A stretch of DNA of 64,000 nucleotides. Source: Hydrolagus affinis (taxonomy: Eukaryota). Made by a program: the position numbers and the translations under genes. The notes under the pieces were generated by a model. The model was given only the letters and a program-made list of their open reading frames with translations, was not told where the DNA came from and ran no database searches. Positions 2,244 to 28,899 of the stretch are shown here, one piece after another (the stretch's first letter is position 1; each line of letters opens with the position of its first letter). The stretch is from positions 1 to 64,000 of the forward strand of contig JAAILG010000051.1 of the NCBI GenBank assembly GCA_012026655.1. Reading direction: 5' to 3'.

Positions 2244-2352
2244 GCGAGGATAAACCCAGTGAATGTGACTCCTCCAATTTCAGCTGTGGACCAGGATAGA
2301 AACATTCAGCCAGCAGATGATCGTCCAGGGATTCTGTTCTCCATCCTCATCG
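2244..2352 (+). CDS. PCDH15: PCDH15 exon (~exon 9, EC3), 109 nt
   Basis: tttttacag|GCG...ATCG|gtttgt; [36 protein letters not shown](G). Confidence 0.95.
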
Positions 2353-2464
2353 GTTTGTAACTGCCAAATACTCTCCAGTTTGTATTTAGCCAATTGGACT
2401 AGAATTTATATGTAAGGACGCACTGGACCATAAGTTTTAAGTAGTGACTTAATTATGCTGGTCA

Positions 2465-2615
2465 CTCTTTTCCTCCCGAACTCCGACACACTGAACCTAG
2501 TGTACCATTCCTATTGCTGCCACAGCTGAGATCAACTGATTCACCACAGATTTGGCAGATTGAACCTAAGGAAAGCTATCTAACTAAATTACTTTGCTCT
2601 GCTGATGGGAGGGAA
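2465..2615 (-). mobile_element. Ancient SINE fragment, AmnSINE2-like, in a 323-nt intron
   Basis: ctgccacagctgagatcaact...gattgaacct shared with the 625-752 copy. Confidence 0.5.
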
Positions 2616-2675
2616 TGCTATGCCAATCATTTTGAAAAAGAAATAGTCATTCTAAACTGTATCATGTTGTTTCAG

Positions 2676-2788
2676 GGACTCCTGAGGATTATGTCAACTA
2701 CTTCTCTCTGAATAATACCACGGCAGAGCTACATCTCCTTCAACCAATAAACAGGGATTTACATCAGAAATTTGATTTAGTTATTAAG
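2676..2788 (+). CDS. PCDH15: PCDH15 exon (~exon 10, EC3), 113 nt
   Basis: tttcag|GG ACT...AAG|gtaatt; (G)[37 protein letters not shown]. Confidence 0.96.
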
Positions 2789-3721
2789 GTAATTTCACAT
2801 GAACATCTGTTGTTGTGATTGGGATGTTTGCTATTTATTGATAGTAATATTCACGAAAGGGAACTGAAATAATGTGCAACAAATACAGTATGTTGTTTAC
2901 AAGGCATATGAAATTGAAAGCTCAGGGAACATGAATGATCTGTTCTATACAAATATGCTGCACCATAATATTGAGGTTAACCGTGTTATACAAAACAATA
3001 TATTTACTCATCTCTTTATGTTGGAATGTGACTATTTTTTAGTAAAGTAAATGTTTCAATTAAATATTTATTTCACTCCTACCCCCCACCCCATCACCTC
3101 TCTTTGTCATGCTGAGCTTAAAAAGGAGTACATCATTTTTAAAAGCCAAAGCTATTTCTTAAACTGAGAAAGCTCAAAAAGGGGTTGTCAATCTAAAAGC
3201 AATTTTGCCATAATCCTTGACAGTGATGTTATACCAAGGCATGGAGTTAAGAATGTTGACATGAACATTAATGTTCATCCTGGGAGAGAGTTTCACACAG
3301 GGGTTAAACACAAATATTCACTGAATCCAATCCTCTTGGGTCTTCAGTAGTCTTGGTTCTTGCAGCAAAGCTTCAGAAGCCTCTTATTTTGAGAAATAAG
3401 TCAGGCCATCAGTTCTATTTCAAGATAACCATTATCTGCTGGAGATTAGTATCACCGCATCCCTACAGTAGGAACACTTACAAAGCTATTATCCCTCTTT
3501 GACGTATGGAGACATAGTGGTAAGGGCAAGGAATCAACGGTTTGTGGAATACTGATGAAGACAGGACTGAATGTGGCTAAAAGAAACATTTGCTCAAAGT
3601 GGAAATAATAAATTCAGTTTTAAATATTTTACTTGCATATAGCCTTTTTCTAAACTTTTTTTTGCAGAAAGCATGAAAATATTACAATATAAAATGCAAT
3701 TTTGCAACATTACACCAATAG

Positions 3722-4025
3722 TTAATAACAATAATAATCCTTGCATTTAATATAATGCTTTTCACATCTTCTAGAGATCTCAAGTGCTTGAAAGAATATA
3801 CTGTAAAGTGAATTGACTGTATATTTGTGGGAGAAACGAGGCAGCCAGTTGCACACAGCAGTGTCCCATAAACAGTTGTGGACTGAGTGACCCAATTTTT
3901 TTTGAGGGATTAATATTAGGCCTGTGGAGTAAGGAAACTTGCTTAATATCTCGCCTTTCTGGGAATCGAACCAGGTATCTCGCTTGCAAGGCGAGTGCTC
4001 TAATCACTGAGTTACAGGACTCCAC
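3722..4025 (-). mobile_element. tRNA-SINE, short (internally deleted) subfamily
   Basis: tRNA head with A/B boxes on - strand, Deu-type 3' segment, (ATT)n tail; homologous to 36600, 45917 and 56263. Confidence 0.9.
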
Positions 4026-6314
4026 TTTACTTCACCATAGCAATGTCTTCTGGAATTCCTTTCCAAAACCACTTTGTCTTATTACCTCTTGAATTGTGCG
4101 TTTGATCAACATCTTTAAATCTCATATGATTCTGCTCAGGATCTTCCACTATAGTCATCAAGCATTTAAGTGTTGTTTTATTTGAAAGGCACTATGTAAA
4201 TCTAAGTTGCTTTTTGCAGTTTTGATTGAATATGCACCTAACTCAGTGATGAATAAAATATTCATAAAAAGCAAATTAACAATCTGCAAATTCTTTGTAG
4301 ATACAATGTGCTAATCCATTGAATTTATTACACATTAGTTAATTAAGTCACTTTATATTGTGATTATCACCAGTATCCCTTGAATTCATGCTGTGAGATA
4401 AGCATGTTGTGAGGTTCGAAGTGTTTTAGATTTTTTCTCTTATCATTTGAAAACACTATTTCATATTCCATATGCCCATTCATAGTTGTTGCACAGCAGC
4501 GTAGATGAAGATATTGAAAAGCTGAGCATTCATTTTAGTGAAGAACCATACATGGAGCTATTAATTAGCTAATGTTGCAGCAATCAGAAGCAATGTATTC
4601 AATTAACTTTTAGCCAGCTGCTGTTTTAATGCAAGAGTGAACAACAAATCCAGCTTTCATTGTCCACCTCATCAGTCATCTTTTTTTACAGCTTGTGATC
4701 AGGTCAGTTAGCTCTTTTGACTAATCAATAATCTTTTGCTCATTTCCTCTTCAATCATCTCTGTCTAATGTAATCTTTTATATTTGTCTTTATTCGTGTG
4801 CTTTGGTTAATAATTTTACCGGGATTAATCTATTGTAATCAATGCTATCTTACAATTATTGCGATAATTACGATACATGATGAATAATTTGCCACATGGT
4901 TTAGCATTAAATGATATTCTTAGATCTATTATGTGATTTCTGTAACTAGTGCTTGCTCGACTCCAGACATGCAATCCAAACTACGTGTAATTCTATGTAA
5001 AAAGAAGTGGCGACAGTTGTATTGGGTAAATGCTACAGATATCTGCAATCTGCTCCAAAGTCATGCCCTCTGTGATCATTAGAACTTAGTCCTTGAACAC
5101 AGTACATTTAGTGTTTGCTTTGAATACATTCATTAACATTTTAGTTGAAATCTAATTTTATTTTGACTTTAATTGAACAAAAGAAGTTGGATATGAAATA
5201 AGTGACAAAATCCGTAAACTTAGATCTAAGCATATTATCATTTGTTAAGTATCTGCTGTGTGTAAAAATGTGTGTTCAGCAGTTTCCCTTGGCTTTCGAT
5301 AATGAATTTCTATTTACTAATGTAGTTCTGCATCCTTTCATATTTCTTTGAATTTCATGACATTCTCAATTTTAGAAAATGACTTTGGAGATATTATATG
5401 GGATCTCTATATGGCTTTATCCCCATCCACGCTGCAAAGGAAAGTATAGCAGTTCGGACTGTGAGCTACTTACAGAAATCAAACAAAAATTATGTTTCCG
5501 CTTTATATTGTTCTGGTTGTCCCGTTATTTTGAATCTGAATTACTGAAGGTCCTAAAAGAACCTATGGGAAACGAGTTTCTAAATTGATTCTGAATTTAA
5601 GAATCTGTCGGCGCAAGTTTAAATTTCTCCCCACAAGTCCAGTGCTCTTGCATTGAATGGTAGGGACATTTGACACATAGAACTATATCACTCTAAATGA
5701 ATATTGGTGAATGCATGCATGTCAAAGCTCTATAGCACATCTCCAACAGAGAAATCCTCTGTGGAGCAAGCATAGAAATAGGAATTGTATTGCTTGGTAT
5801 GGGGTGAATGTAAATGTTTAAAGATGGAAACCATTACCCAGAGAATACTGTTATAAACATGATTGCTTTCTTTAGAATATTTCCAGCAATACAGTTTGCT
5901 TCTATTGTGTTTAGGAATTGTAGTTTATGCAAGTAGTAATCCAATTGTGGTAAATTTGACTTTTTTTAAACTCTTCGTCAGGATTGGGGTGGATAGTTTA
6001 TAATAAATTGTACATTGTGCTATTGTAAAGTATGATCTTCTACAAGTGAATAGTTGTTAAAAATGTGTCACTGGATATCATTCACATGTTAAAAACCATA
6101 TTGTTAACACTTTTTAAAATAGGTTTCAGAAACATGATCTGATATCTATTGTGGTCTCCAATGAATAAACAGCTCTGGTGCTTTGATTTTCTATAAAAAA
6201 CGAAAGCGCTTTAGTCTAATAGATTTGCTTATTGCCATTGATTATATGTATATTGCAGAATAAGATCCAGGATTTCTTTTCAATGTATTCATTAATATTT
6301 ATCATCTTCATAAT

Positions 6315-7408
6315 TTTTTAGTTTGAACAACAAATGCATTTTGAAAATGGTTCTGACTGGAGGGAAGTGTACATTGGTGTACCCACAGGGATCAGTATTG
6401 GGACCACTGCTCTTTTTTTTAATATATATATAAATGATCTGGACTTAGATTATAGGGAGTACAATTTCCAAGTTTGCAGATGATACAAAGTTAGGAAAAA
6501 TAGTACATAGTGAGGAGGATAGTAGCAGACTGCAAGAGGACTTAAGACAGAATGGTTAAATAGGCGGACACATGGAAGATGAAGTTTAATGTGGAGAAAT
6601 GCGAGGTGATGCATTTTGGGAGGAAGAATGAGGAGAGGCAATATAGGCTAGATAGTACAATCTTAATAAGGGGGTGGGGAGGGGGTGGGTGAAGGAACAG
6701 AGAGAGCTGGGGATTCAGGTAAGTAAATCTTTGAAGGTGGCAGGACATGTAGGTAAGGCTGTCGAAAAAGCATACTGCATACTAGGCTTTATAAATAGGG
6801 GCATAGAGTACAAAATTCAGGAAGTTACGATTAGCCTGTATAAAACGCTGTTTAGGCCTCAGCTAGAGTACTATGTTCAGTTCTGAGCACCACACTTTAG
6901 GAAGGATGTTAAGGCATTGGAAAGGGTGCAGAGGAGATTACCAGAATGGTACAAGGAATGAGGGACTTCAGATATGAGGAAAGGAGAGGCTAGGATTATT
7001 CTCATTGGAGCAGAGAAGGTTACGAGGAGACCTAATAGAGGTTTTCAAAATCATGAGGGGATTCAATAGGGTAAACAGGGAAAAACTGTTTCCACTGGTG
7101 GGTATGTCAGTGTCCCAAGGTCGCACATTTAAAATAGTTTCTAAAAGAAGCAGAGGGGAGGTGAGGAGAATTTTTTTTGCACAGCGAGTTGTTCAAATCT
7201 GGAATGCATTGCCTGAAAGAATGGTGGAGGCTGATTTGATAACAACTTTTAAAAGAGAGGTGCAAGGTTATTTGGGGATGACAAGTTTGCGGGGTTATGG
7301 AGAGAGAGCCGGGGAGTAGGATTGACTTTGAATAGCTTTTTTCAAAGAGCCAGCACAACATGATGTGCCGAATGGATTTGTTTTGTGCTGTAAAATTCTA
7401 TGATTTAT
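6315..7408 (+). mobile_element. CR1 LINE, 5'-truncated (RT, C-terminus, 3' UTR), frameshifted
   Basis: GVP(Q)GSVLGPLLF..YINDL..SKFADDTKLG; YKTLFRPQLEY; RRLRGDLIEVFKIM; ends ...gaatgg...gtgctgtaaaattctatgatt, a shark-type CR1 tail. Confidence 0.95.
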
Positions 7409-7645
7409 TTTCATATTGCACTATTATATTGGTATTATATGAAACTGTTATTATTATCATACTTTAATATAGGTATTATAAAAATGAAATAGCAATTCTT
7501 ATTGCAACCTTGCCTGTTAAGAACTGCATGAATATTTTACTGAAAGCTCAGGCATTTCAGGAATAAGTATTCTGATAACTGATTTACTGTTAGCTCGTTC
7601 TTTAGATGTCAAAGATAGATTGTGATCCTCTTGTCTTTCACATAG

Positions 7646-7852
7646 GCAGAACAAGACAACAGGCATCCACTGCCAGTTTTTGCCAGTCTACACATAGAGG
7701 TCCTGGATGAAAACAACCAAGGCCCATATTTTACAAGATCCACCTATCAGGGCTTTATTATTGAGTCTGCTCCAGTGGGAACATCACTTTCCGACAGTAA
7801 AAATTTGACAATGCCTTTAAGAATTGTAGCACTAGACAATGATGTGGAAGAG
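7646..7852 (+). CDS. PCDH15: PCDH15 exon (~exon 11, EC3-EC4), 207 nt
   Basis: catag|GCA...GAG|gtgaga; [29 protein letters not shown]...ALDNDVEE. Confidence 0.96.
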
Positions 7853-8115
7853 GTGAGAGCTGCTGTTCATGGTTTTTTGTGTGTGTATATCTATATATAT
7901 TATTTACAAATCCAGTGTGCATTACGTGTTTACTTAAGCCCTGTTAATCACACCTGAATTGGTGCACTGTGTTTTAACCATCTAGAATCTACACTGTGGA
8001 ATGTTTTTCATTTCTAAAACTTTCATTAAAATGCTTTTTTATTGTAGTGCACATTTAATATGATTTCTGTTGCTTCTCTTTTTGTATGAATTTTCTTTTA
8101 TCTGTTCATTTGTAG

Positions 8116-8136
8116 GTTGCATCTGGTGCTACTCCT
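8116..8136 (+). CDS. PCDH15: Putative 21-nt alternative microexon (exon 12a counterpart), VASGATP
   Basis: Long U-rich tract + tgtag|GTT GCA TCT GGT GCT ACT CCT|gtaggt; phase 0-0; same length, position and terminal V/P residues as mammalian exon 12a (VPPSGVP). Confidence 0.8.
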
Positions 8137-9723
8137 GTAGGTATTCAGGGTGTGTGCATGTGAAGTGGTTTTGTCTTACGTGCAGCATGTTGTTTTGTCA
8201 TATAGTGGAATATGTCATTTTTACTTTCAAAGTAAATCATTGTGTTTGTAGTTTTGCTTCAATCTTAGAATTGCATATTTTTATTAATACAGTACTGTAT
8301 ATAGTAATATCTATATATGGGGGTGGGGAGGAATGTAGGTCTCCTTAGAACTGAACTGGCTCCATGGTGGCATGTTTGCCAAAGGAATGGCAGAATCGTA
8401 CCACTGCTGTGTGACAGTCTCAGTAGTCCAGCTCCTGATCCAAGTCCACAGTAATCCCAAGGCTTTGCTGATGGCAGCAGAGCCAGTTTGGCTCATTGCC
8501 AGGTAGTGTAGACCAGCTCCTGTTAACCCTGCAAGCCAAACTCCTAGTGTGTCCCAATGGATATTTTGGTCCTAGCTGGACAAATAGTGAGAAAGCTTGG
8601 TAGTCTCGATAGTCCAGTTCCTGATTCTGGTGGGTCCATAGTAGGCCAGGGCACTACCCATGACAGCACAGCCAGCTATATTTCAATGGATAGCATTTAT
8701 ATGTATGGGTAGGATGCATAGAGCTCTCAATTTGGTTAGGATACTGTAAAACATGGTGATGGGTTTCTGCAAATGTCAAACACCTGACTTACTCCCTAAA
8801 AAATTCAGACATATTGGCAAGACCTATCTTTCCAATGGGTAAAATGCTGTCTTATGAAGCATTTTGAGGGGTCCTTCTGATGTAAAAAGTGCTATGTCAA
8901 ATGAAAGAATTATCAAATAAAATTGATCATCGGGTTCAAGTGAGAGGAGATACTCTTGCTGAATACTAACAATGCATGATAGACTGGCAACCAATTTCTG
9001 GACCCACTTCAGCATGTTATTAAACACTTACTCCAGTATTGTTCTTTTTTATTCTTATTGATGAAATTGACCACATGTCAAGTTTCAAATCTCTTATGTA
9101 GGTGCTTTATAGAAGAGTTCTCTTTACATTCATAATGGGGAAAAATCCTTCTGGCTATTCACCCTTTATTGAAAATCCCTTTTAAAAGAGTAGTTTAAAT
9201 ATTACAAAAGTTAACTATTTGTGGGTAGTAAATGCCTGGTGGTATAATTGTTAGATAGTAAATTCAAATAATTTGATCTCCGTCAGTAATCTTAAGAAGT
9301 TAAAGACCAGGACTTAATAATGTTTTGATGGAGCTCAATAAAAGGGATAATGGTCATAAACGCACAGAACCATGTGAGTTTTACCACATTAGTTAAACAA
9401 TTTTATGAACGGATAGATTGTGTGCATTTTATTGATACTCTTCCTGGTTTTATTAAAATGAATCAGGGCTGTTAAATATAATTTATGATGAATGCATTTT
9501 TTAAAAACAAATTCCTTCACTTTTGATGATTTTAAGCAAGTGGTGATCTTACAATTTTTGTAATGTGTTTTTAAGTGAATGCTGTTTAGATCATTGCAAA
9601 TCATTTGCTTGGATGTAAATATTAAATGTTCTGGCTCCTACAAGCCACAATTCAAAAGCCAAAAAGTTAAACACTGGTCTGATGCTATAGGCTGGGTTAT
9701 TGAAAACAATTCTGATCATTTAA

Positions 9724-9910
9724 AGAAATCACTGGGAACACTCAGCAGGTCAGGCATTATCTATAGAGAAAGGAAAAGTGAGTCAACGTTTCGTGTCCAC
9801 AAAACATTGACTCACATTTCCTTTCTCCATAGATGATGCCTGACCTGCTGAGTGTTCCCAGTAATTTCTATCTTTGTTTCAAATTTGCAGCATCTGCAGT
9901 ATTTTGCGTG
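9724..9910. mobile_element. Palindromic non-autonomous repeat, probably Penelope pLTR-derived
   Basis: ~68-bp inverted arms (9724-9791 / 9802-9869) followed by ...tttgtttcaaatttgcagcatctgcagtattttgc; related fragments at 28720 and ~44490. Confidence 0.75.
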
Positions 9911-10385
9911 TTTGTCTGGTCATTTAAAGTTTACCTCATTACCCGTTTGGCAGCAGGAACATCCTTATTTATGGTGGTTGCTTATATCAATGGTGCTTGC
10001 AATTATAAAGCTTTTTTGCTCTAAATAGAAGGAACAACATTAAGTGTTTTTATCTTTTTTTGTGGTCAGCCACTAGTCTGACATCAGCAGAAACCCATCA
10101 CTGTGCTTGAGTCTCCCAACCAGACACATAAAAGGAAGTTAAAAATATTGTGAGGGAAAATTGATGTACGACTTGAAATTCCTTGAAATCTTTGTATCTA
10201 AAATATTGCTGAAGTACTTGTACACTTGGATCTTTCTAGCATTGTGAAGTGGTATTGCCAGAAATGTATCTATTTGTAAGGTTACGCATTAGATTGCCAG
10301 TGCTACGAATAAGGTATTCCAACAATAATTAACATTGCGATGCATGTTCAGTTGTACTATTCTTATCCCTTTTATATCTCTAAAG

Positions 10386-10520
10386 ACAAAAGATCCACAT
10401 CTGCGAATTTCAGTGAATGATTTCAGCACCGTATTTGGTGTAACTCCCAGTGGAATAACTCGTTACCTGACATTACTCAAGCCTGTTGACAGGGAGCACC
10501 AACAGAATTATACTTTCACA
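10386..10520 (+). CDS. PCDH15: PCDH15 exon (~exon 12, EC4), 135 nt
   Basis: ctaaag|ACA...ACA|gtaaga; [45 protein letters not shown]. Confidence 0.96.
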
Positions 10521-10836
10521 GTAAGAGATATTGTATGGCTTTTTTGCATAGGGAAGATGTCATTACTACCATTTAATGACCAAAAATAATCATAGTCTAT
10601 AATATTGAACCATACTATACTCTATAAACCTGGTATAGAATGTTTTTACTGTACTGTACCTACATTGAGATCTGAATTGGATTTGATGTTGAAAATATTT
10701 ACTGTTACTTTGTTGCAGCTTTACTGCATTTGTATTGCAGAAGTGGCAGTTATTTGCACAAAATCACTTTTAGTATATTTTTGTAGCAAGCCGTTAGAAT
10801 GCTCAGCTAATGGATTTCGTTATTTGTTTCTGGAAG

Positions 10837-10986
10837 ATGACTGCCTCTGATGGCGTTCAAGAGAGCACTTCTGTTATTGTCCATGTCTTTGTGATCGATG
10901 CAAATGACAATACACCAATTTTTCAAAACATCTCCTACAATGTGGATATCTATAATGACATGACGCCTGGAGAAACTGTTATACAG
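10837..10986 (+). CDS. PCDH15: PCDH15 exon (~exon 13, EC4-EC5), 150 nt
   Basis: tggaag|ATG...CAG|gtaggt; [29 protein letters not shown]...PGETVIQ. Confidence 0.95.
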
Positions 10987-11734
10987 GTAGGTAATCCATC
11001 CAAAACTGCAGCATTATGAAGCGATTTTCATTTTGTATGAATACAATCATTGTTCAAATCAATTTAGAGGTCATTTTGAAATTTGCACCTATTGTTATTT
11101 TTACCATTCTTCATGATATTAGAGAGGCAAAATGTCATATTGTCCTTGTGCATAATCCTGAAGCATAATAACGTAATGTAACTTTATTTTTGGGGAAAAA
11201 AAGCTCTTATTTATTTCTGTTATATCTTTAATTGGTAAGTAAAAATGTTGCCGTGAACAATTTTCACATTTTCAATCTTCTCCTTTCTCTACCGAGAGTA
11301 TTCAGGGTAAATCAGCAGATTTCTCTGCTGAAATCTAGGTTGTTATGTAATCTAGGCTCTATAAAAGCTCTACCTAGAATCACAAATAGCAAATTGGGAG
11401 TCACAAATTGAGACTCCATTTGGCAAGTGAAGTGCATCATGTTGAACTTCACAATGTATGACTGGTCACATTGTATTAATTATTGGTTGGTACAAAACAC
11501 TTTACCAGTTGGAATTTCTGTTTGTGAAACCGGCCAGCGAATACAACATGTTGGAAAGATATACTGTACTGAGCCTCAAAAACAGATAAAATATACATTC
11601 TAATAAACTGAAAATATGGCAGAATTAAACAATTGAGTTTTTAAACATATTGTTTATATCTCTGTATATGGTTGTACAGAAATATGTATCAGAAATAAAG
11701 CTGAATTCACTGTACTTTATCAAACCTTTGTCAA

Positions 11735-11795
11735 TATAATAATAATCCTCGCATTTGATATAGCACTTTTCACGTGTTCTAGACGTCTCAAAGCC
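11735..11795 (-). mobile_element. SINE 3' tail fragment
   Basis: aataataatcctcgcatttgatatagcacttttcacgtgttctagacgtctcaaagc. Confidence 0.8.
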
Positions 11796-12124
11796 GAATG
11801 AATCATATGCAAGCACATATATATGTAACCAAAGGCATATTAATCTTGTACCACATTAATCATACTAATTATTCATCAAGAACATTTCGCATCTGCTTAT
11901 AAAAGATGAAAGTCACTATGGACCTAAATGTAATTAAAGAGAATTTTGTAGTGTGAATAATAGCCTCCAGTGTAATATTTAACCCAGGAAATACTAATAT
12001 ATTGAATTTGTTGATTAGAAGAAGCAATAAGAATATGCTTTTTTTAATATGGTAGATTTGTTAATGGCTTTATCAATATAATAGAGCTGCATTGTTTATT
12101 AACAAAACATGTAGGTGCCAGCGC

Positions 12125-12450
12125 TTCCCAGTTTGAGGCACTCTTGCCTCTGAATTAAGAAGCTGGTGGATTCAAGCCCATATTATTATTTTGTCACTTA
12201 GTACTCAAGTCCAGGCTGGAACTGCAAGTACTGTGTTGGGGGGAGCATAACATTGCTGGAGGTGTTGCCTTTTGTACAATATATTAAACCAAAGTCCCAT
12301 TTTGCCTGTTCAGGTGATGTTAAAGATCCCATGACACTATTCGAAAAGGGAAGGGATTTTCTCCCTGTACTTTTTTTAATCCTCCAACCGCAGATGCCGA
12401 AATGCTTCCCCTCTCATTGTTTCCCTGCACGTCTGCTTGTTATTTACCAT
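12125..12450 (+). mobile_element. Old DeuSINE (SacSINE1/AmnSINE1-like)
   Basis: tRNA-like head followed by Deu core ...ggaggtgttgcctttt...ttaaacc...caggtgatgttaaagatcccatgacactattcgaa. Confidence 0.75.
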
Positions 12451-14419
12451 GTTGACCAGAATTAAAACTAAGTGGCTCCATTTTGCCCTCAAGTTTGACA
12501 CCTGGAAAACCAATTCAACAAGATAACATTTTAAGATGTATGGATTTGTAAACCATTGATAAAACGGCCACCCCAACTATCATAAATCTGCATGCCTTTA
12601 ATCAAGGAAATGAACTGGAATGTGGGTTGATGGTGTCAATAATGTTTGGATATTAAGATCAGGTTGAGCTGAATTCAGTTTGAGTTATTCATGCAATTGA
12701 ATAGAGAAGTGACTTTTTTATGACTTAGTTTGCTGATTGATTTTTGCAGAATTGTATCAGGAACCATATTTAATGGTAATTTATGCTAGTATTATCATAG
12801 CAAAGGTTTGTAAGTCAGTCCTCAAGATTGAAGTAACTTCACCCACGTAGGAAATTGAGAAACCTTATTATAATCTCACAATATTTCATACATGGTGGTA
12901 TATTATATGTCAGATAGTCTTTATAATGGTATAACATGTATCTGCTTTGCTCTGTTTCCACAAAACTTTTCACATGCCTCTTAACTCCAGTACTGTATAT
13001 GTTCCAGGGTGACTTCCCCTCTAATGTGACTGTCCTATCTTCATTGGTGACTTCAACCTCATTTAAATTTTGGAATTTTAGTGCTTAAAAATTAAACAAC
13101 GCTTATTTTGTCACCCAGTGCAAGTATCAGGCATTCATAAGAATTATTATTATTCATTCTCAGATCAATTATAGAATGGCTAAATACAAATTGAAGCATT
13201 TCTTAACTCTGGCCCAACCATTTACTTTTACTCCAACCTCAGAAAGCACCCTGTACTATTGTGTTTTTTGTTCCATTTCCCTGCCCAGCCACACAGCCAT
13301 CCTGTGATTATCATTCTAGTCTCAATTTGTGTCTCAGCAGCAGCTCTATTAATAGAGTCTGGGAGTTCCAGCATCCATTTTTTTGTGCTTTGCGCCTCAA
13401 ATAATAATTGAAATGTAATTTGTGGTAAGTACATTTTCAGTAGTTACTGTAAATCTAACTGCTTTACTTTAGATTTATAATCAGTACACAGAGATTGTCC
13501 GCTCTTTTCTATATTTCGAACCTCATCTTCTTCTGATTGTAAATTTGAGAGATAAATTTGAATGTAGGTTGATTTTTGTAACGTGTTTCACAGAATGTGT
13601 GTGATTGATATTGATGAAAATTTGATTGATCTGTCGAGCAAGTGGATGGAACTTTTTGGAGCTATTGATTCACGGAACAAATCTGTGCTAGTTATTCTAC
13701 TTTCTTTAGAACTTTAAACCATTTATTGCTGATGCTTCTTTGAAATTGTTAGCATAATCAGAGCTTAGTTTCAGCAAATACAGTATGAGCCACTTAGAGC
13801 AGCAGTGCTGAGACCATGTTGATTCAGGGACTGAATTATGCACATTAAACCTGAAATGATCCATTCCTAGATCACTCAGTGGCTCATGTACTTTGTTCAA
13901 AGCTACGAATGTAGTTTTTTTTCTTTTTAAATAAAATATGTAGTTGAACTTTCCTGAGCTTTGTTCTTTGTATTTTGAATGTTTGATGTAAATTCATTTA
14001 AGACAGTTCCAGTTTAATAAGGCACTGTTTTCTATGTTGATCAAAAATAATGTTCTAACTCTCATTATGGTTAAATTGTGATCATGGTGAAGTACATAAT
14101 GCACTTGATTTACTTCTACAAAGATTCACTGTGAAGGGGGGCTAAATCATGGTGACTAACTATTATGCTAATTATCTTATTCATTTCACAGTTATACATT
14201 TGTTTTTACACAAAAGTACTACAATGATGTAAAATTCTAGCAAATTTTGTTTCTTTGAAAATCCATCATAATATGGACAATGATTATTTGCAACTATTAT
14301 TGCTGCTGACAAGACCTTAGAATAGTTTTGCTTCCCGGCTTTGTGCTGAAAATTCTGGTTGTGTCAGTATTATTTTGATCAACATCTTCACTGACCATCA
14401 TTATGTCTGTTTATTTTAG

Positions 14420-14613
14420 CTCATCGCATCCGATGCTGATGAAGGCCAAAATGGAAATATCACCTACGAAATTCTGGCTGGAGATCATGGTGACTTTGTA
14501 ATAGATGATAACACTGGACTTATCACTATTGCACCTGGAGTTGCTTTAACTGTTGGGCGTTCCTATGCTCTAACTGTCACAGCAATAGACAATGCCCTGC
14601 CAGCTCAAAGAAG
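14420..14613 (+). CDS. PCDH15: PCDH15 exon (~exon 14, EC5), 194 nt
   Basis: ttttag|CTC...AG|gtaagc; [26 protein letters not shown]...DNALPAQR(R). Confidence 0.96.
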
Positions 14614-15709
14614 GTAAGCATTTCATGAACAAAGCAGGTCCTTACACTTACAACAACTTATTTTTCGCAAGTATAAAATAACACAAAATAATCATCGTCT
14701 ATATTTTGCTTTGGATTTTCAAAGCACCAAAATACGATAGAACCTTACACGACTTTTGTGCAAAGCCAAAAGTACAGGAAGCCAGATTAATGGACGGGTC
14801 CATCAGCTAGGTGAGGATGAGGATTCTCGTTGAATACTCGCCGAGAACGTGTCGGGATTGTAAGCAGATGGGTGTTGGTGAGAAGTTGGGATGAAGGCAA
14901 GAGGGGAGTTTGTGGGCTGGGAATGCTTGAAGGACTGGCTGTGGTTCTTAAGGCTTTGTCCTCTAGCCCAGGGCCTCTTCGAACACTTAATCCTTGCATT
15001 TTGCATTTTGATATAGCGGTTTTCACATCTTATCTTATCGACTTGTTCGAATAAAGAGTTGTGGTAACTACCCTTTAACTAAAAAAGAATCATTGTTCCT
15101 TTAAAACTTACTCGGCAGTGTTTGGTATCATGACGGGTTGGTCACCCTGTATATGTTTTTTTGAGAAAAAGGGGGAAATTTATATGTACATATTTGAGGT
15201 ATTTTGTTAATATAAAAGTTTTAAAAATAAATAAAACATGTTAAATGGATAAAACAGAATAACAGGAAATTCCCAGAAAATGAAACGGAAAAATAAATGA
15301 ATTTCTCGTGGCTCTACATATAGTGTGTAGGGCCTTTTATATAATGGTGTCTGCTCAAATATACCACAAAGTTTCACACAACATAATTGCTGCATCTTCA
15401 TCTTCATCTTCTTTTCGAAGGATTGCTAACCATATTCTTTGATGTGATTCTTTTCTTTATTTTGCAGAGAGCAGCCTTGAAAATTAATAATGATTTTTAT
15501 ACATTGCCATTTTCTGTGACTTGAGTTGTGGATCCTCCCTCAAAAAAATGACAGTTCCCAAGATGAAGTTGTTCTGTAATCTCACTCGAAAAACAAATGA
15601 ACAAATAACACACCCTTTCTTTTCCTTCAGATGTGTTATGACATATTGCAGAATTATTGAAAATGTACTTGGAAGTATTTGATGGCTGATCATACACTAT
15701 TTTCTGCAG

Positions 15710-15842
15710 AAACTCTATCACCACTGTTTATATTGAAGTCCTTCCTCCAAACAACCAGAGTCCACCAAGGTATCCACAGATGCTATACAACCTTGAAGTG
15801 AGTGAAGCTATGAGAACGGGGGCGACTTTGTTGAGTTTGCAG
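15710..15842 (+). CDS. PCDH15: PCDH15 exon (~exon 15, EC5-EC6), 133 nt
   Basis: ctgcag|A AAC...CAG|gtaaat; [44 protein letters not shown]. Confidence 0.96.
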
Positions 15843-15889
15843 GTAAATATAGATGTGTAAATTGTTCATTTTGCTCCATATCAGTTGAG

Positions 15890-16155
15890 ATGTTCAAAGC
15901 ATTCTAACCTCTGGGCCAGATGGTTGTGGATTGAAGCCACAATTAGGAATTTGAGCTCATAATCTGGGCTAAGACTCCAGTGAAATTGAGGTCTTGTGTG
16001 CCTGTAAAGGTGGATTTTAAAATCACTATTCAAAAGAAGAATGGTGTCTGACCAACAGTGCTCCAGATTATTTGGTTATTCACCTCATGACCATGTGGAA
16101 CTTTATTGGTGCAAATTACTGTTGTATTTCTACAAATACAGTGACTACTTTTTCG
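15890..16155 (+). mobile_element. Old DeuSINE (SacSINE1-like), degenerate
   Basis: ctctgggccagatggttgtggattgaagcc...gactccagtg...ggtggattttaaaatcactattcaaaagaaga...gtgcaaatt...acagtgactact. Confidence 0.65.
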
Positions 16156-16346
16156 GTTAATCATAAGTGCATTATTGAAGCACATCACAATTTCATTGTA
16201 CATTTAAAATCACAGTATCAATATTTTCATATTTATACTGTGACCTGTCATTGAACTAGAAAATTGGACTTCCATTGCAATTTATTGCAATACAATTCAG
16301 AGATTCTACTCACTTCTAATCTCCTAACCAAAACCTATCTTGAAGC

Positions 16347-17200
16347 AATAACAACAACAAAAAAAAAATTACATTTGTATAGCACCTTTCCCTTGGGGGA
16401 CAGTCCCAACACCCTGCACAGTCAGTGTTTCAGACCAGAGCTTTGGATTGGGGAGGGTGGAGATGGAAGGGAGGTGACTGATGGCATAGTCAAAGTGGAG
16501 GGTTTTAAGGCAGGACCTGAAAGAGGCTAGGGAAGGGATGAGGCAGAAGGTTTGCGGGATGAAATTCCAAAGGTTAGGGGCAGAGTGATTGATAGCTCGC
16601 CCGCCAATAGGGGCAGGCAGGTTGGGGGATATGGAGTAGGCCAGAGCCTGCTGGGCAGAGGGAGCGGATGAGAGTTTCAGAAGCCTGAGGGATGAGGTGG
16701 TGGTGGAGTCGGGCAATGTTGCAAAGGTGAGGGAAGGCAGAGCGGGTCATAGCATGGATGTGGATGAGAAAAGACAATTGAGGATCGCACAAGATATCTA
16801 GATTCTTGACTGGCTAGGTGAGATGGAGTGTGCAACCATGGAGGTTGATGCTGCCGGTGCTTGAGGTGTGGAGGCGTTGGCACGAGCCAATCAAAAGGTA
16901 TTTGAGACGTTGGATGGAGGAGACAGCTGGTGGTAGAGAAGAGGAGCCTGGGCTTATCCTTCACCTCCAAGATTAGAAGGAAGATGTGGCTGAGGTGAGG
17001 GCGGGCGATAGATCTTGGTGTGATCAAGCCAAATCTGCCGATGGACCATTAGTTTGGATTTGGTCCAGGTGCCTTGAGGGATCGGAGATGGCTGGTGTAC
17101 AGGGGGATTTACGGAAATATGAACCAGTTCGGGAGATGAGGGGGGCAAGGGAATCAGGGATGGAGGAATTGTTGAGAAAAGAGAGTGAAGATGGTAGATC
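16347..17200 (-). mobile_element. L2 LINE fragment with 3' end
   Basis: (GTT)n tail at left on - strand; ORF2 remnants IGGRAINHSAPNLWN, TRSAFPHLCNIARL; internal deletions. Confidence 0.9.
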
Positions 17201-18272
17201 AGTACATCATATTTCAGGTAAGTATTTAACTCTCGCCAAAACATGTTGAATGTACAATTGAGCATTTAAGGCTAATGCAGCTTCATTGTGGGGTTCCCGA
17301 TTAGCAGAATTACTGGCAACATCCATAGTTTGATACAAATGTAATTTTGTTGATTTGTTTAAAAGGGTTGCAAAGAGCAATACAGTTATTTATAATATTT
17401 TTATTTCCATGATTTATTTCTTCTAATAGATTTGTTTTCTGAATATCTCCTTAATGGTACTAGTTTGCAGAAGTTACTGGCCGCTGCAGCGTGAAAGACT
17501 AATATGCACAGATGAAATTGAGCTTGCTGACTTAATAACTATCTTTTGAATAATTTAGCTGCCTCCATGCTGTGGAGGTCAGTAATTGCACAAGCCTGAC
17601 TTTGCACCTTTGCATTCCTCATGTGTTCTCAGTACACATCGTGGCTTGTATAATGTAGGAGAAACCTTCCTTTTTTTGTACAAACAGGAGAGCAGTAATT
17701 TTAAATGTTCCAATGTCCCATGTTTTCTTTAGATATAAAATAGTATTGATTAAAAAGTTATTTTAAAAATTGCTTAGATTACAGAGGGTAACCCAATTTG
17801 GACACATTTATTGAATGGTTTGGTACCAGCTGTAACATTTTCTTGACCCTGCCCCATGGCTCTTATGAACTGTCAAAAATATTCATCCACGGGTTCATTT
17901 ATTTTTATAAACTCAGAAATTGCTGTTGACAGCAGAAATGAGACACAAAGTTGGTCAGAAAGTCAAGTCAATAATTTTAATTTAGCATTTTTGCACTGAA
18001 TTGAAGCAGTCACCGTATAATTTGCTTGTGGTAAGTAGATGGGAATGTCGAAATGAATGAGAGGCTAGCACAGATCATAAACTGTGCATTAGGTTGATCA
18101 TCTTTGGAAAATATTTGCAAGCTATTGAAATAAACCAGGCTGACATATGTTATGTTAGATTATCATATAAGCTTGAAAGGATATATTTTACATTTAACAG
18201 CTGTAAGATTTTGTTTTTTTAGAATGCCAACAGCATAGCTTCCAGTTATGCAAAAATGGGATCTCGCTTTCA

Positions 18273-18688
18273 AATAATAATTATCAATCTTCATTTGATA
18301 TAGTGCTTTTCACATCTTCTGGACATCTCAAAGCACTTCATAGCAGCAGCCAATTGCACACAACAACAAAATATAACAGAATTACATTTATAGAGTGCCC
18401 TTCTCGCCAGGAGGACGTCCCAAGGCACTATAGTGTCCCACAGCAGTGTCTCACAAACAGTCTTGGATTGAGTGAACAAATTATTATTCTTTTTTATTAT
18501 TTTTTGAGGGATTATTATCCTCGGAAAAGTGATCCAAAAATCGACTAATAACCAGGTTTCTACTTACTGCTAGGTAAACAGAGGCTTGTGGAGTAAGGAA
18601 ACTTGACCAACATTTCACCCTGCCGGGAATCAAACCCAGGTTTCCCACTTACAGGCCGAGTTTTCTAACCACTGAGTTACAGATCTCT
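18273..18688 (-). mobile_element. tRNA-SINE, long subfamily, interrupted by an L2 tail (18359-18440)
   Basis: Homologous to the 36600 copy including its ~64-bp central block; nested L2 3' end. Confidence 0.88.
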
Positions 18689-19554
18689 TGAAGTTCCCAT
18701 TAATATGTTTAATTGATAACATAAGAAGTTATTCCCTTTTCCCACCTTGGAGCGTGGGCCTGAATTTCTCTTCAGTTAGTGGGGCATCCTGCTCCTTTTC
18801 CTCCTACTCTCCAGGTATCCCTTCCATAAGATTCCCCCTTCAGTATTTTCTTTAAAAAAAATGTAATACCTGAAACCATCAGATACATTTTGGAATCAAT
18901 TAATAAATGTATTTGGTATGCTTGCCCCCCAGTATAAATTGGCTAACTCCGCTTGGATTTTGACAGTGAGTCTCCAAACAAGTGATGTTCTAGGTATTAA
19001 CTTGTATTGCTTCAGATTCAGCTGTGTATGTTAAATCAGTTGGTTCACCTTTCAAGTTCATCAACTCCTCCAGGCAAGATCCGTATCTGTGTTATCGTTA
19101 ATCACTGTTTAAGCACAAATATCCTACAATAATCAATAGCCACAAGTACATAAAATGTTTAAAAAAAAGTTTTACAAACAAAACTGGCCAATAGTGAATT
19201 CGTATTTTTAGTAAGTATAATGTTTCTGCAGAATCAAATCATAATACAGTACAATAGTGAAGAGAGAGCAACACTGCATTAAACAGCAAGACCTTTTATT
19301 GATGCTGGTAACATTGTTAAGTTCAAATATTTATTGCCAAATGAGAACTACAAAGCATGTTGATTCAGGGACAGTGCTGCGTTGCTCACTGAATTATTTA
19401 AATCTGTGAAAAGGACATTTTCATCCAGAGTGTATTTCTCTTTTATGTTTTTTCTTTGTTATATACCTTCTAAACCACTCTGCTAATGAAAACTGAGGAT
19501 TACCTAACTTTAGCTCTCAGTTAGCAGCGCACCTTTCTGCAAGTTCAAACTACA

Positions 19555-19675
19555 TATTGGTGCTTGAACAAATTTTCTCAGTGACACTCCAGTGCAGTAC
19601 CAGATGAAGTGCTCCATTGACTGGGGAGCTGCTACTTTTTGGATATGATGTTAAATCAAGGCCCAGGATACCTGT
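19555..19675 (+). mobile_element. Old DeuSINE fragment
   Basis: gtgacactccagtgcagtac...gtgctccattg...gatgttaaatcaaggccc. Confidence 0.7.
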
Positions 19676-20129
19676 GCTGCTGAAAGGGATGGCTGTTGGA
19701 TAAGAAAAGGAGTCAGATAAAATGCCCTCCTCCCCTCCATTGTCAAATTGACTGCCAAAATCTGCTGTTGAGACCTACGCATAAATAATGAGCTCCTGGG
19801 TGTAGTATTTGAAGCATTGGAGAAGCTGTGAGAAAAAAATGAATCAAATTTCTTCGGGGAGAATGGCAAAAACTGACACGGAAACAGAAATGCCCTACAG
19901 AAATATGCCGCTGCTGTGTGCCGTTTAGAATGCCGAAGTCACTATTCATCTGTATCAAACGGCCATGTCAATGTGCAATGCACAAGAGTGTTGAGTTGTG
20001 ACAGTTTCAACAGTCTGCTCCCACTCTTTAGAGTTTGCTGCTTCACATGTTCCCCGAACTGATTCCCTTCCTTAGAATTTTTCAAACCCTTTCTGACCAG
20101 GTTGAAAATATGCATTCAAGGGAGACTTG

Positions 20130-20252
20130 AAGGAGAGCAATAAAGAAAGAGTATGGGAAAGAGTATTGACATTCAGATATGTGGCTCTGGTGGAGGAAAT
20201 ATCACCAACATTAGTGGGCTGAATGGCCTCGTCCTATAGTGTAATTTCTGTG
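20130..20252 (+). mobile_element. CR1 3' UTR fragment
   Basis: tgggctgaatggcctcgtcctatagtgtaatttctgtg CR1 terminus. Confidence 0.65.
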
Positions 20253-20349
20253 GATCGTCCACAGGAGCTCCAGTTATAAATCAGTTCCATTGTTTATATT
20301 TGTGTTATAATTATAGTGCATTACTACTTCATGTCCTATTTATTTTTAG

Positions 20350-20429
20350 GCCACTGATCGTGAAGGAGATCTCATCACCTATCGCATTCAGAATGGAGAT
20401 CCACAGCAGGTCTTTAACATCACTCAAAA
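20350..20429 (+). CDS. PCDH15: PCDH15 exon (~exon 16, EC6), 80 nt
   Basis: ttttag|GCC...AA|gtaagg; ATDREGDLITYRIQNGDPQQVFNITQ(N). Confidence 0.96.
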
Positions 20430-21481
20430 GTAAGGAATTTGTTTAATATTAGATGTGTGATGGTGTCTGATAATCATTATTATTTGATTAATTTTCATGT
20501 TTTAATTAAATAATTATTTTATAACACCATCAAATTCTGTACCTTCATGTTAACTGCATGATATGCTGTAAACGTGCGGGTGCAGCAACTGAATAATCTG
20601 TAATAGTTGAGTTTTCCTTAATTAACGCTGGCAAAATAAGCAGTGTTCATGGATCATTGATTCACTGTAATTGACAGCAAAGTGTAGACACATTGATATA
20701 AATATCAAAGTTATGCAGATACTGCAGTTTTACTGGATGTTTTTGTTTAGAAAAGGGTCCCCAAAATCCATCATGATGAAAATTTGGCTGCTAATGGGGC
20801 TGGATGCCAAGTACTAGCACACATTGTAATCTCTTTGCATTTGACGTGAAGAATTTCCCAAAGCATATTTCATTTATGGGTAATACATGATTGAGATTAT
20901 TAAATAGGTGTTTGCCTTAAAACTGCTCAAAGCACTTTGTGAAGTGCAAATTGACTTCTGGATTAGTTATCCACATAAGACTAACTGCAGTGTCTCCTTT
21001 AGTAAATGCGAGGGAAATGAAAGCAACAGATTCAACAACAACATCTTGCATTTTTTTAAACTAATTCCCCGAAGGACAGTTCTCAGCTTTCTCAGAGAAA
21101 CAAATTGGAACCAATTACACCTGATATTTGTGCATATGTTTGTTATGGGAATTAGATATTAACAAAAACAAATATTGGTACATTATATGCAAATTCAGGA
21201 ATAGAGATTGTGTCAACCTATCTTTGGAAATATAGGTGCATATCTGTCATGAAGACTAACAGAGGCCACAGATTTCTTTGTATATATTCTGTGCAGAAAC
21301 TACCTGAGTGCATTATGCCATTGAATATGCAAAAAAATTCCTTAGAATTGCATGATAGAAGCCCATTTTGACTGTGTGACGCCATTTGTTTTTGATTCTT
21401 AATACAATACAATTCTACAGTCTGTTTATAGGGTCATAAATGTTCATTTTATTCTTTTACCGCACTTTTTTCTCATCCCAG

Positions 21482-21575
21482 CAGTGGACTGCTCATCTTA
21501 GGAAAACCTCTGGATAAGGAAAGTACTGATCGATATATACTTATTGTAACAGCTTCTGATGGCAGGCCTGATTCG
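21482..21575 (+). CDS. PCDH15: PCDH15 exon (~exon 17, EC6), 94 nt
   Basis: cccag|C AGT...TCG|gtaagt; [31 protein letters not shown]. Confidence 0.95.
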
Positions 21576-22394
21576 GTAAGTTAGTTAGACTCTTAAGATT
21601 GAAAGTTGTTTTATATTGTTTCTCGTGATCCGTTAGCTTCCATAAGTAAGTATTTGATACTGTTCGAGAAACTCATGTTCACTGTTTGGAATAGTGACTT
21701 TACCTTTATAAAAATAATCACAGGTGGGTGTTGTCATATTGGCAAAATACCAACATCATTTCCAGCAATTTATTTTAGCATTATATATAATATTAGTCTT
21801 AGAAATGGGTATGGAATTTACTTAATCCAATATCTCCTAAGTATGCAGCTATACTCTTGCCATAGTGAGACTGGTTGCTCATAGGCATTGACTTGAACCT
21901 TTTGTTGGAATATTCTCCTTGAGTAAATGAATTCTAACAAAAAGAATATCTTACAAATGTATGTGGCAATCTGCCCAATATGCATCTTGGAAACTCCCAG
22001 TGCTCAAGGTTTACTTGATCATACTAGGTCATCTTATAGCTCAGAAAGTGATTCTGTGTCACTGCAAGGATCAATGATACACTATTTGGGGGCTTTTGTT
22101 GGAATAAAATAAACCAATGACTTCCTATGAAAAGATCATATGCCATATGAAAGATCAAAGTTGAAATATAATGGCCCTCTGGTGCCCATTTATTGAAGCC
22201 ATAAGTGGATCAGATTCTTTAATGGAGGGATTATAGTGGTTCTTTGGGATGTTTCCACATTAAGATCTATGCTATTACAGATTTATTCATATTGGTTGCT
22301 CTTTGCAATTACTCAACATGCTTTGCTTTAGCAGCTCCTTTTTGTATTATGGATTTTAGGTTCAATATCTACGCATATTATTGCATTGCTTAAT

Positions 22395-22490
22395 GTCCTG
22401 ATTATACTGCTGGAAGTGAAGCAATATTGCTTCCAGCAGTGAAGCAATTAGGAGCAAGAAACTTAATTTATACATTGAATTGACCAGGAG
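22395..22490 (+). repeat. Unclassified dispersed hairpin repeat, copy 1
   Basis: ACTGCTGGAAG...CTTCCAGCAGT hairpin plus downstream flank; second copy at 42570. Confidence 0.8.
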
Positions 22491-22719
22491 AATTCTGGAC
22501 TTGCACATACAATAATCGCTGTTGCTTGTTCAATATTTTGAAGCAATCACCAAGCAATTGACCCTTCAAAGCATTACAAATGTTGTTCTTTGGTGGTTCT
22601 TTGGCCATCCATTGGTCCAGCTGAGGACTTTTAAGGAATAATTTCTGTCAAGATCCTGAACTGAGTTTCACTAGCTGCCGTTATAATCCAGAGATAAGAA
22701 TTTCTAATAAAGAGATGTC

Positions 22720-22795
22720 AGCCTGGTTCTGTTGGTAGCTTTCTTCCTCTGAGTCAAAGGATTGTGAATTCAAACACTATATTGAGATTTTGAAT
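22720..22795 (+). mobile_element. Old DeuSINE tRNA head
   Basis: gttggtagctttcttcctctgagtcaaaggattgtgaattcaaac, similar to the heads at 12125, 15890 and 35205. Confidence 0.55.
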
Positions 22796-24582
22796 TCTTT
22801 GAACTATTCCGTTGCTTGTCTCTGAACTCTTTCCATTGCTGCAATGTATTTTTCAAGAAATTGTGAACCACTGCGCACAGTGTGAATTCAATGATTTATA
22901 CAAGCCTAGAATAGTTTATTTTTCAATATCTCTTTTTACTGATAACTTTTTTGTTTCATTTTTCAAGAATAATCTTAAGATGTAACCTGATAATACAATT
23001 TTCTCTGAAAACATGATTAATAGTAGCATATATTCCCTTTTTATTCTCCATAAGCTTGAAGAACAACTCTTCATTTTATACATACAGTATTGTATTTATT
23101 GTTTATTGTGCCAAAGTGCACTCTTGTATTTGTCTGCAATATCGACCTTCCCCTTCTTTGGCTGTCTGTCGATTTAGACTGGATCTTACTGGTACTATTC
23201 TTATTTCTTGTATTCATCTGAGATGGCTTAATATATTTTAGCAAGTATCATGCGTAGAGAATTTGAGCCCTCCTCATCATTGCCCCAATGACAGAACATT
23301 TTCAATTTAACCAATGTCTTTTGCTGACAGTTTTCAATTCAACTGGCTAATTTTTCATTCATTCCATGAACTGTAGCTGTCTTTCGAGGTCTCAAATGTG
23401 ATTTTTGAAAAGCATTCAAATAACTTTGAATCAATTTCAGAAAACATATTTGACACATACTCAACTGTAACAATTTTCTCTGTACGATTTTAAAAAAAAC
23501 GAAGTTAGTTGCCAACAATATAAATATTTTTCAAAAACCCATCGGTTCGCATCAGCAAAAGTTCGGTGCTGTATATAAAAATCATCATTTCTTTAATGTG
23601 CTGTCCCAAGGGTACAATCTGCCTGGAAGAAATCACAGCTGAAGGATTTTATTGTTTGCCTGATTCCGTTTTGCTTCTCTGAAACAGACAATTCAGAAAA
23701 CAAGTGAAGGCCAAAATAGGGTTTGATGCAGTGAACGAAAGCTCATGGGTCTTTCTAACAAAGAGGGAAATAAAAGTGCTATAAGTGCCACTGTACCAGT
23801 CTCTGCAGCATAATGGTCAGAACCAAGAATCCTCTTATCTTCTTTAATGCTCCCTGAAACAGAAGTGCCCATCTTTGATGGTTGCAATTTAAAATGAGTC
23901 AGTATGTGATAGAATAACTAAAGCAGCTCATTACGCAAGGGTAATCAGTTTTTAAAAAAAAAGTAAATTGCAGATAGATTGAATCAGCAATGCTTTGCAG
24001 TTATTCTGGTATCTACTTGCGCAGCAATTACCAGCAGAACACAAAATGTACTCATAGACTTGTGTCGAACTCAGGCTTGTTTTTTTCTACCATCCTTTTT
24101 ATTGATGACTGATGCACACTGCAATATAATAAATAAAAATAGTTTATCAAGGAATGTTTAATTAGGATTGTATCCACATCTTTTAAGTGAGTGATTCTCT
24201 GCTTTGGTTTCTGCTGGCCGTCTCCGAAGTAATCTTCCTGTCACTCACCAGCTAGCCAGTCAACTGTGCGGAGAGGAGGGAAGCAGTGCTTTGGGGCAAA
24301 CTCATACTTTGCGTGTGCATCAGCCCATAGACTTGTGCAGTGAAAAAGCATCTAAGTGTCAGGAGCTGGGCTCATGCAGCAGAAATGTTCCAGTAGATGG
24401 ACTTGATAAATTTAGCTGTTTATAGTGGCCAGATGTTATCTCTGACTTTCTCATCAGCTCAGCTTAGATTTGACTACATTGCCTTCCCAAGAGCTATATC
24501 AAATGTAAGGATTATTATTATTCTCAAACTCAATTCAGTCTCTGCTCTGGATCTTTGTTGGAAGTCTATGAAAACTGCTGGT

Positions 24583-24585
<3 letters not shown>

Positions 24586-24614
<29 letters not shown>
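24586..24614. repeat. (AT)n microsatellite
   Basis: Direct reading. Confidence 0.95.
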
Positions 24615-24659
24615 CTGTATATGTCAGGATCATAATTGTATCAGTCTTGCTACCTGAAC

Positions 24660-25100
24660 AGACAACCAACACCACCACCCACTGTCTCCACCCAGCTGCC
24701 CGTGATCTGTCTTTCCTCTCCTCCAACTCCAAATAGGAAGAGTTGAAGGGTTTCCTTGGGTCTAAAATTGAGCACTTGTCTGCCTTGACCTCTGCTTCTT
24801 TCCTTCAAATCCTATTTCCTTTCTGCACTCTCTCCGTCTCCATCAGTACCTCTACTCCAGGCTGCTGAAGGTTGAAATATTCCTACTGCTTGCTGCACTC
24901 CCTAGCTCTTTCCTTCACAAACAAGCTGCAGACCTTGCAGAACTCTGCAGCCTTTGTCCTCTTCCACCCCAGTCTTTGCAAACACATTACCCACATCCTC
25001 ACCAGCCTCCACTGGCTCCCATACCCCCCAGATCAAATTCTAGATCTGATCATTATTCTGAATTTCAAATTCCTCCTCGACCTTCCCCCGCTTTACCTCT
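24660..25100 (+). mobile_element. Old L2 ORF2 C-terminal fragment
   Basis: KLQTLQNSAAFVL...HITHILTSLHWLP, an L2 C-terminal signature. Confidence 0.85.
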
Positions 25101-25302
25101 GAGTCTACTGATTCACCTGTTCTCTCCACTCAGCAAAGAGCTTATTGCCCACTGCTTCTTGTCTCAGTACTGATGGGGCAAATTTTAGTAATTCTTTCCC
25201 TGAACTATGCAACTCCATCTGCTCCATACCTTACTTTGATGGAGCTGTGCCGCTCTGTAATATGGTTACCCAATAATGTCCATGATCAGTCAGTAAGCAT
25301 TA

Positions 25303-25362
25303 AATAATAATAATCCTTCCATTTGATATAGAATTTTTCATGTCTTCTAGGCGTCTCAAAAA
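25303..25362 (-). mobile_element. SINE 3' tail fragment
   Basis: aataataataatccttccatttgatatagaatttttcatgtcttctaggcgtctcaaa. Confidence 0.75.
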
Positions 25363-25908
25363 TGATAGACATCCCCATATGATTTGGAGATTAAGTTGAG
25401 GAAGATATCATTAAATTTCAGAACTCATGTAGATTTCCTCCAAATAAAAATAGTAATCAAAACTGAAAGAGTTATTCAAGTTGTCTTCCTGGACGTAGGT
25501 TCCTTATATTACCATAAAAGCACAATTTGGTTTGAATTTAAGCAACCAAACCAAAGATATGTATCAAGTGATCTGGATTATCTGGAACTCAGTTTAAGAC
25601 ATGATAAAATACTAATCCTGTTTAGAGTATCTGCATTGGTAATTATATTTCATTCTCACATCCCACACACACCATAATAAGATTAGGTTGACCTAGATTC
25701 AAAGTGCTGGAGATTTCAAGTGGATTGTTTCCCTTCAAGACATTTCTGCTAAGATTGCCTGTTGGTCATTTTCTTTACCAAGAGGCAGATACTTTTACCT
25801 TTTCCTCAGTTTCCAGTGAGATAAAGTAAATGATTTCATGATTATTATTATTAATAATAACGCCGTCCGGCGTGGAGGGCGCTATATAAATCAAAGTTGT
25901 TGTTGTAT

Positions 25909-28850: not shown

Positions 28851-28899
28851 TACAGAGAGACCAAGGGCAGACCCAATATAGATTGGGCAAGTAATGATT

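Follow-up and report, generated by a model that had tools for sequence, protein, structure and literature searches.

A PCDH15 microexon in a chimaera as the probable counterpart of mammalian exon 12a

Exon 12a of PCDH15 is called a cassette exon in the available part of PMC3679001. According to the accessible sections of the structural work on the human protein (PMC7547225, preprint 10.1101/695502), its insert enlarges the BC loop of EC4 and projects away from it with the fold unaltered; two of three linkers bind one calcium only, and an effect of the insert on calcium affinity or binding is suggested. The human structure 6E8F has VPPSGVP at this junction, as the earlier note had stated for mammals, and human structure 5T4M has no insert. 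A close parallel in another gene is the DAAM1 microexon, which the available part of PMC12056172 presents as a small in-frame cassette, shared in position from shark to human and near-constant in length, that lengthens a loop or linker. For DAAM1, neural inclusion and a knockout phenotype have been demonstrated, whereas for exon 12a there is structure only; no regulator or phenotype of exon 12a was found in the literature searched. Elasmobranch pcdh15 isoforms form the third comparison, with examples in XP_038629344.1 (Scyliorhinus canicula X1), XP_059509133.1 (Stegostoma) and XP_032890362.1 (Amblyraja).

We describe a 21-nt microexon in a 64,000-nt window, by which we mean the whole stretch of DNA that was analysed. 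It agrees with human and mouse exon 12a (CD2-1; 6E8F; PMC7547225, PMC3679001, as far as the consulted sections go) in gene, junction, phase, seven-residue length and placement in the EC4 BC loop, and differs in sequence, reading VASGATP where human has VPPSGVP and mouse VPPGGVP: V1 and P7 are common with human, and V1, G4 and P7 with mouse. The window's microexon is known from DNA, and its splicing into the transcript, its tissue pattern and any coupling to a cytoplasmic tail are at most putative. With the elasmobranch isoforms it shares seven residues inserted at exactly this junction, as many as 6/7 of them identical, and in catshark both forms are modelled; it differs in that sharks and rays are annotated with the insert and none of the holocephalan models retrieved is. 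Our main reading, to which we give a probability of about 0.9, takes it to be a functional cassette microexon that undergoes alternative splicing, orthologous to PCDH15 exon 12a and handed down to chimaeras from the last common ancestor of cartilaginous and bony fishes or an earlier one. The features are as follows.

2244..54225, + strand: span of the PCDH15 coding exons, 15 in the window, all AG/GT-bounded
7646..7852, + strand: upstream constitutive exon, covering the end of EC3, the EC3-4 linker and the first part of EC4, with ALDNDVEE as its last residues
8066..8115, + strand: U-rich polypyrimidine tract and UAG acceptor
8116..8136, + strand: microexon, probable PCDH15 exon 12a orthologue (21-nt cassette, VASGATP, phase 0-0)
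8137..8142, + strand: 5′ splice site, CCT/GTAGGT
8155..8160, + strand: TGCATG, RBFOX-type, putative intronic enhancer, 19 nt downstream of the microexon
8185..8189, + strand: GCATG, another core motif of RBFOX type, 49 nt past the microexon
10386..10520, + strand: downstream constitutive exon (remaining EC4 BC loop onward; starts TKDPHL)

The 15 window exons join into one open frame of 748 codons. Exon 7646-7852 identifies the host gene as PCDH15: its best matches in the PDB are PCDH15 structures (E ~1e-33 to 1e-38), and the best 120 of its 590 protein-database matches are PCDH15 throughout. The encoded 748 residues are identical to Callorhinchus milii models at 707 positions, the best figure for any other protein tested being 598/748. 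Judged by these identities, the DNA most likely belongs to a chimaera of another species than C. milii but akin to it, and the cartilaginous-fish origin proposed in the earlier note holds.

Several further features of the gene may be recorded here. A tandem CAGCAG acceptor (21479-21484) at the exon starting at 21482 could gain or lose one codon. High-copy repeats, marked by very high read depth, lie at 6650-7400 and 9720-9900; the translation of 6650-7320 resembles what we take to be the 3′ end of a CR1-type LINE. Catshark and eel PCDH15 isoforms show further differences of 2-7 residues near the N-terminus and behind the transmembrane region, so that PCDH15 also has microexon-like events beyond the window.

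The layout at 8116-8136 is tttgtag/GTTGCATCTGGTGCTACTCCT/gtaggt, and GTTGCATCTGGTGCTACTCCT translates to VASGATP. The microexon is in frame, is bounded by AG and GT, and lies 263 nt (intron 7853-8115) past an exon ending (A/V)LD.D..(E/D) and ahead of one starting TKDP, both of its junctions being in phase 0; the geometry first described (U-rich tract, tag, 21 nt, 263 nt after ALDNDVEE, phase 0-0) is confirmed at these coordinates. Ranked by a splice matrix built from the window's 15 PCDH15 exons, and rough for having 15 sites only, it comes fourth of 2,552 intronic frame-preserving AG..GT pieces of 3-51 nt, first of 146 intronic 21-nt pieces and first of 169 in its own intron. Since three other intronic pieces score equally, splice signals alone do not prove an exon; the proof is homology, and there is a high probability that 8116-8136 is a real exon. 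The second-ranked of the 2,552 pieces, a 6-nt candidate (AG-CAGGAG-GT, 31205-31210), was dropped, with an insert in 0/235 homologous junctions.

We collected 517 proteins, 294 of them with both flanks of the microexon junction. There, 248 have no insert, 44 have seven residues, one has nine and one has five, and among the window's 14 PCDH15 junctions this is the only one with a recurrent insert. The evidence outside mammals consists of automated gene models, in which 11/19 elasmobranch species carry the seven-residue insert and 8/19 do not. The sequences are VPSGATP (Stegostoma, Cetorhinus, Scyliorhinus torazame, Rhincodon), VLSGATP (S. canicula), VPSGSTP (two Chiloscyllium), VPSGVTP (Heterodontus), VPPGTTP (Amblyraja) and VSPGTTP (Hypanus, Hemitrygon). 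Teleosts have LAPNATP, LNPGDVP and LDPGDTP; sauropsids (birds and a squamate) have IPPGAIP, VAPGAIP, LAPGAIP and VPPGGTP; mammals have mostly VPPGGVP, curated mouse CD2-1 (NP_001136214) among them. In RefSeq, 8/10 S. canicula isoforms include the insert and X3 and X9 skip it, the insert being the sole difference between X3 and X1 across the first 1,480 residues. None of the 10 UniRef models retrieved for C. milii has it. The suggestion that automated annotation misses this exon is therefore wrong in general, given the elasmobranch models, and right for the 10 from C. milii. One Rhincodon typus model joins the exon before 7646-7852 straight to VPSGATP, skipping the 207-nt exon, which may be a misannotation, an assembly gap or a rare form.

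VASGATP is 6/7 identical to the inserts of four shark species, alongside ~80% identity in the flanking exons, and matches human VPPSGVP at 2/7 positions. Against a bony-vertebrate profile (19 species, cartilaginous fishes excluded) it ranks first of the 207 AG-21-GT pieces, and when positions 2-6 only are scored, 0.03% of 41,772 stop-free 7-mers equal or beat it. Position, frame, orthology and the occurrence of both forms in annotated relatives are thus directly supported, and the identification as an exon 12a counterpart, made originally from the window alone, is borne out by junction and length in human 6E8F and mouse NP_001136214 CD2-1 as well as by the four sharks. By this comparison of sequences, exon 12a goes back at least to the split of cartilaginous and bony fishes. 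The jawed-vertebrate ancestor named in the earlier note is a minimum age only, because no cyclostome sequence was retrieved: no lamprey or hagfish is named among the protein matches listed (120 of 590, 120 of 142 and 7 of 7), nor among 10 representatives looked up of 150, where top matches were mostly giant cadherins. The age is presumably more than 400 million years. A metagenome scan for orthologous intron DNA matched 478 stretches and confirmed 0.

The splice signals of the microexon are unequal. Its acceptor scores 11.2 bits and has a pyrimidine content of 0.77, both above all 15 constitutive exons, which bears out the U-rich tract. Upstream is an AG-free zone of 68 nt, with the nearest UGC at -45 and an inferred branch-point-like YTNAY at -61. 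The donor had been called strong and is in fact weak, its score of 4.2 lying below 13/15 constitutive donors on the same rough 15-site matrix. A second donor, TAG/GTATTC (8141-8146), lies 4 nt downstream of the in-frame one and scores 4.4 vs 4.2; splicing there would yield an exon of 25 nt that shifts the frame, perhaps a by-product coupled to decay. Local RNA structure around the microexon is not above background (z = 0.53).

In the portion of PMC4317164 available, TGCATG is the sole motif enriched downstream of alternative microexons, and is bound by RBFOX; microexons under RBFOX regulation have weaker splice sites. The window's microexon has both (U)GCAUG in the proximal downstream intron and a weak splice site. 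Of 60-nt intron windows, 1.7% contain TGCATG and 0.2% contain two GCATG, and either arrangement is found downstream of 0/15 constitutive exons; these frequencies are after-the-fact, the motifs having been noticed on inspection in a TG-rich flank. The very strong 3′ site and weak 5′ site would leave the microexon skipped by default, and RBFOX acting on the putative downstream motifs would promote its inclusion in neural or sensory cells. We put this forward tentatively, at slightly less than even odds.

In its main competitor, SRRM3/4 (the classic neural microexon programme) or some other regulator brings about inclusion, with the TGCATG incidental. The 68-nt AG-free zone and the UGC at -45, between the possible branch point and the AG, are in its favour, and the sections available of bioRxiv 2024.09.17.613571 indicate that UGC is not strictly required for SRRM3/4 microexons and that SRRM4 responses are conserved from shark to mammals. 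By the same account, SRRM3/4 targets combine a strong 5′ site with a weak context on the 3′ side, whereas here the donor is weak, the pyrimidine tract reaches the AG, and no UGC falls within 20 nt of the acceptor. The microexon thus lacks both the UGC near the acceptor and the strong 5′ site of that class, and we regard regulation by SRRM3/4 or another factor as rather unlikely, and RBFOX-promoted inclusion as the better candidate.

Constraint on the insert was read from a table of 29 species, one row each, chosen among those with a seven-residue insert. Left out were the nine-residue quail and five-residue cobra inserts, which are probably misprediction or read-through, a sturgeon exon duplication, the whale shark (model without the upstream exon, counted in the 11/19 alone) and human, whose insert is known from 6E8F alone. 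Position 1 is V, L or I in 29/29 species, position 3 is P in 22 and S in 7, position 4 is G in 27/29, position 6 is T, V or I in 29/29 and position 7 is P in 29/29. Positions 2 and 5, with six residue types each, are the only ones that vary freely, and the consensus is [VLI]-x-[PS]-G-x-[TVI]-P. Marmoset (D4) and human (S4) are exceptions at position 4.

The earlier note had proposed a real exon under selection on loop length alone, with length and the terminal V and P kept and the residues between them free. Length does stand, at 7 in 44/46 inserts, as does P7; position 1 is V/L/I rather than V. Positions 2 and 5 rank with the most variable columns, equalled by only 9% and 5% of flank columns respectively, and the window agrees with human at two of seven positions, which also speaks for length alone. 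A free middle is contradicted by positions 3, 4 and 6, of which the first two stand close to the flank average in conservation (at least as much variation is seen in 42% and 47% of flank columns, respectively). The impression arose because the comparison was with human, the outlier at position 4. We consider selection on length alone improbable; instead both length and motif appear from the alignment to be kept. The sequence constraint is only partial, because, averaged over columns, the insert varies more than its flanks do (mean entropy 1.14 vs 0.63 bits in a recount over 28 species, omitting an icefish row mis-registered downstream). Exonic splicing signals rather than protein shape could be partly responsible for the conservation.

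If included, the microexon would add seven residues to the EC4 BC loop with frame and fold unchanged, a few residues past the DND just upstream of the junction, which we take to be the cadherin DxD calcium motif, adjoining the EC3-4 linker. For the S. torazame protein with insert, AlphaFold places residues 307-313 inside a coil (304-317) of pLDDT<50 between strands 296-300 and 320-323, although the low pLDDT may stem from an alignment of 31 rows with 5 carrying the insert. The model is consistent with a flexible surface loop of EC4. That the insert occupies such a loop without disturbing the fold is seen in this catshark orthologue model and in the human structure, rather than in the window's own protein. 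The motif suggests a constrained Gly/Pro turn, more than a plain spacer, that might adjust how much calcium the EC3-4 hinge takes up and how it bends, or else affect lateral contacts close by; we hold the chances of this to be even. The part of PMC13273323 available reports a lateral contact of EC4-5 in the dimer, the PCDH15 double helix, to which EC4 loops contribute; exon 12a is unmentioned in the main text as available.

Work on mini-PCDH15 constructs limits how large any effect can be. In the sections available of PMC10133396, constructs designed without 12a rescue mouse hearing, among them mini-PCDH15-V4, which has an EC3-EC9 junction and hence no EC4. Exon 12a is therefore at most a modulator, not a requirement, of tip links. 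Its effect on hearing is probably subtle, since a mini-PCDH15 works even after the loss of EC4. The most far-reaching version of our proposal is that 12a is a gnathostome-wide, RBFOX-driven switch in which the conserved Gly/Pro turn of the EC4 BC loop would reset either calcium binding at the EC3-4 hinge or the EC4-5 lateral contact and so yield mechanically different filaments; as a whole we think it a long shot.

Whether the exon is live in chimaeras bears on a further alternative, that it is a relic, live in sharks and with its splicing lost in chimaeras. Reads of four runs, the RNA ones being from another organism, were mapped to 7000-11500 at 80% likeness, where repeats dominated, and among the 15 joints listed of 180 no exon-exon junction was seen. 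In run X3 the flanking exon bins stand at ~1-9 and the microexon bin at 0.01, and in run X2 the microexon bin has a depth of 1.31; since a 21-nt piece may escape mapping, we rest nothing on either figure. In run X1 contig depth drops from ~65 to <10 across the microexon region (7906-8207), a drop from which we conclude nothing, as filtered records make holes. In favour of a relic are the 10/10 C. milii models without the insert and the lack of inclusion reads among the joints listed. However, frame and splice sites are intact, the acceptor is the best in the window, and the 6/7 identity to four sharks matches the ~80% identity of the flanking exons. Chimaeras and sharks diverged roughly 400 million years ago, and an unused exon would not stay intact for so long. 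We judge a relic very improbable and retain the reading of a functional cassette. That the AG-21-GT arose by chance in AT-rich intron sequence, or that several lineages exonised the same junction independently, has a negligible claim, for although three other intronic pieces equal it on splice signals alone, VASGATP is the unique best of the window's 127,960 six-frame 7-mers for the bony-vertebrate profile, and its length and motif are common to four clades.

Some of this was already known, namely exon 12a in mammals with its solved structure and the public shark and ray annotations. Our additions are small: a member from the holocephalans, which the retrieved models lack, the motif conserved in the insert and the candidate RBFOX element. 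Our search, mainly of open-access literature, found no paper that deals with how old exon 12a is, which motif it carries or what regulates it; term searches of PMC13443151 and PMC10089651 gave no mention of it, and the available parts of PMC7652395, PMC4930328 and PMC7917623 contain nothing on it. The supplementary species alignments of PMC7547225 may already show fish exon 12a. Because shark-to-human conservation of microexons has been published for other genes (PMC12056172; bioRxiv 2024.09.17.613571, both seen in part), the present case is unsurprising to a splicing specialist.

For chimaeras the result amounts to one annotation fix. It also makes explicit what was latent in public gene models, the age and motif of exon 12a in the deafness gene PCDH15, with human Ser4 as the exception; from that age and conserved motif we argue that the exon has a function, and G4, P7 and the downstream RBFOX-type motifs are marked as the residues and elements to mutate. 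Should inclusion prove cell-type specific and alter tip-link mechanics, it would matter for tip-link tuning and for which isoform to choose when PCDH15 is used in gene therapy. If the far-reaching version were true, one gene would supply mechanically different PCDH15 filaments to hair cells, electroreceptors, photoreceptors or neurons.
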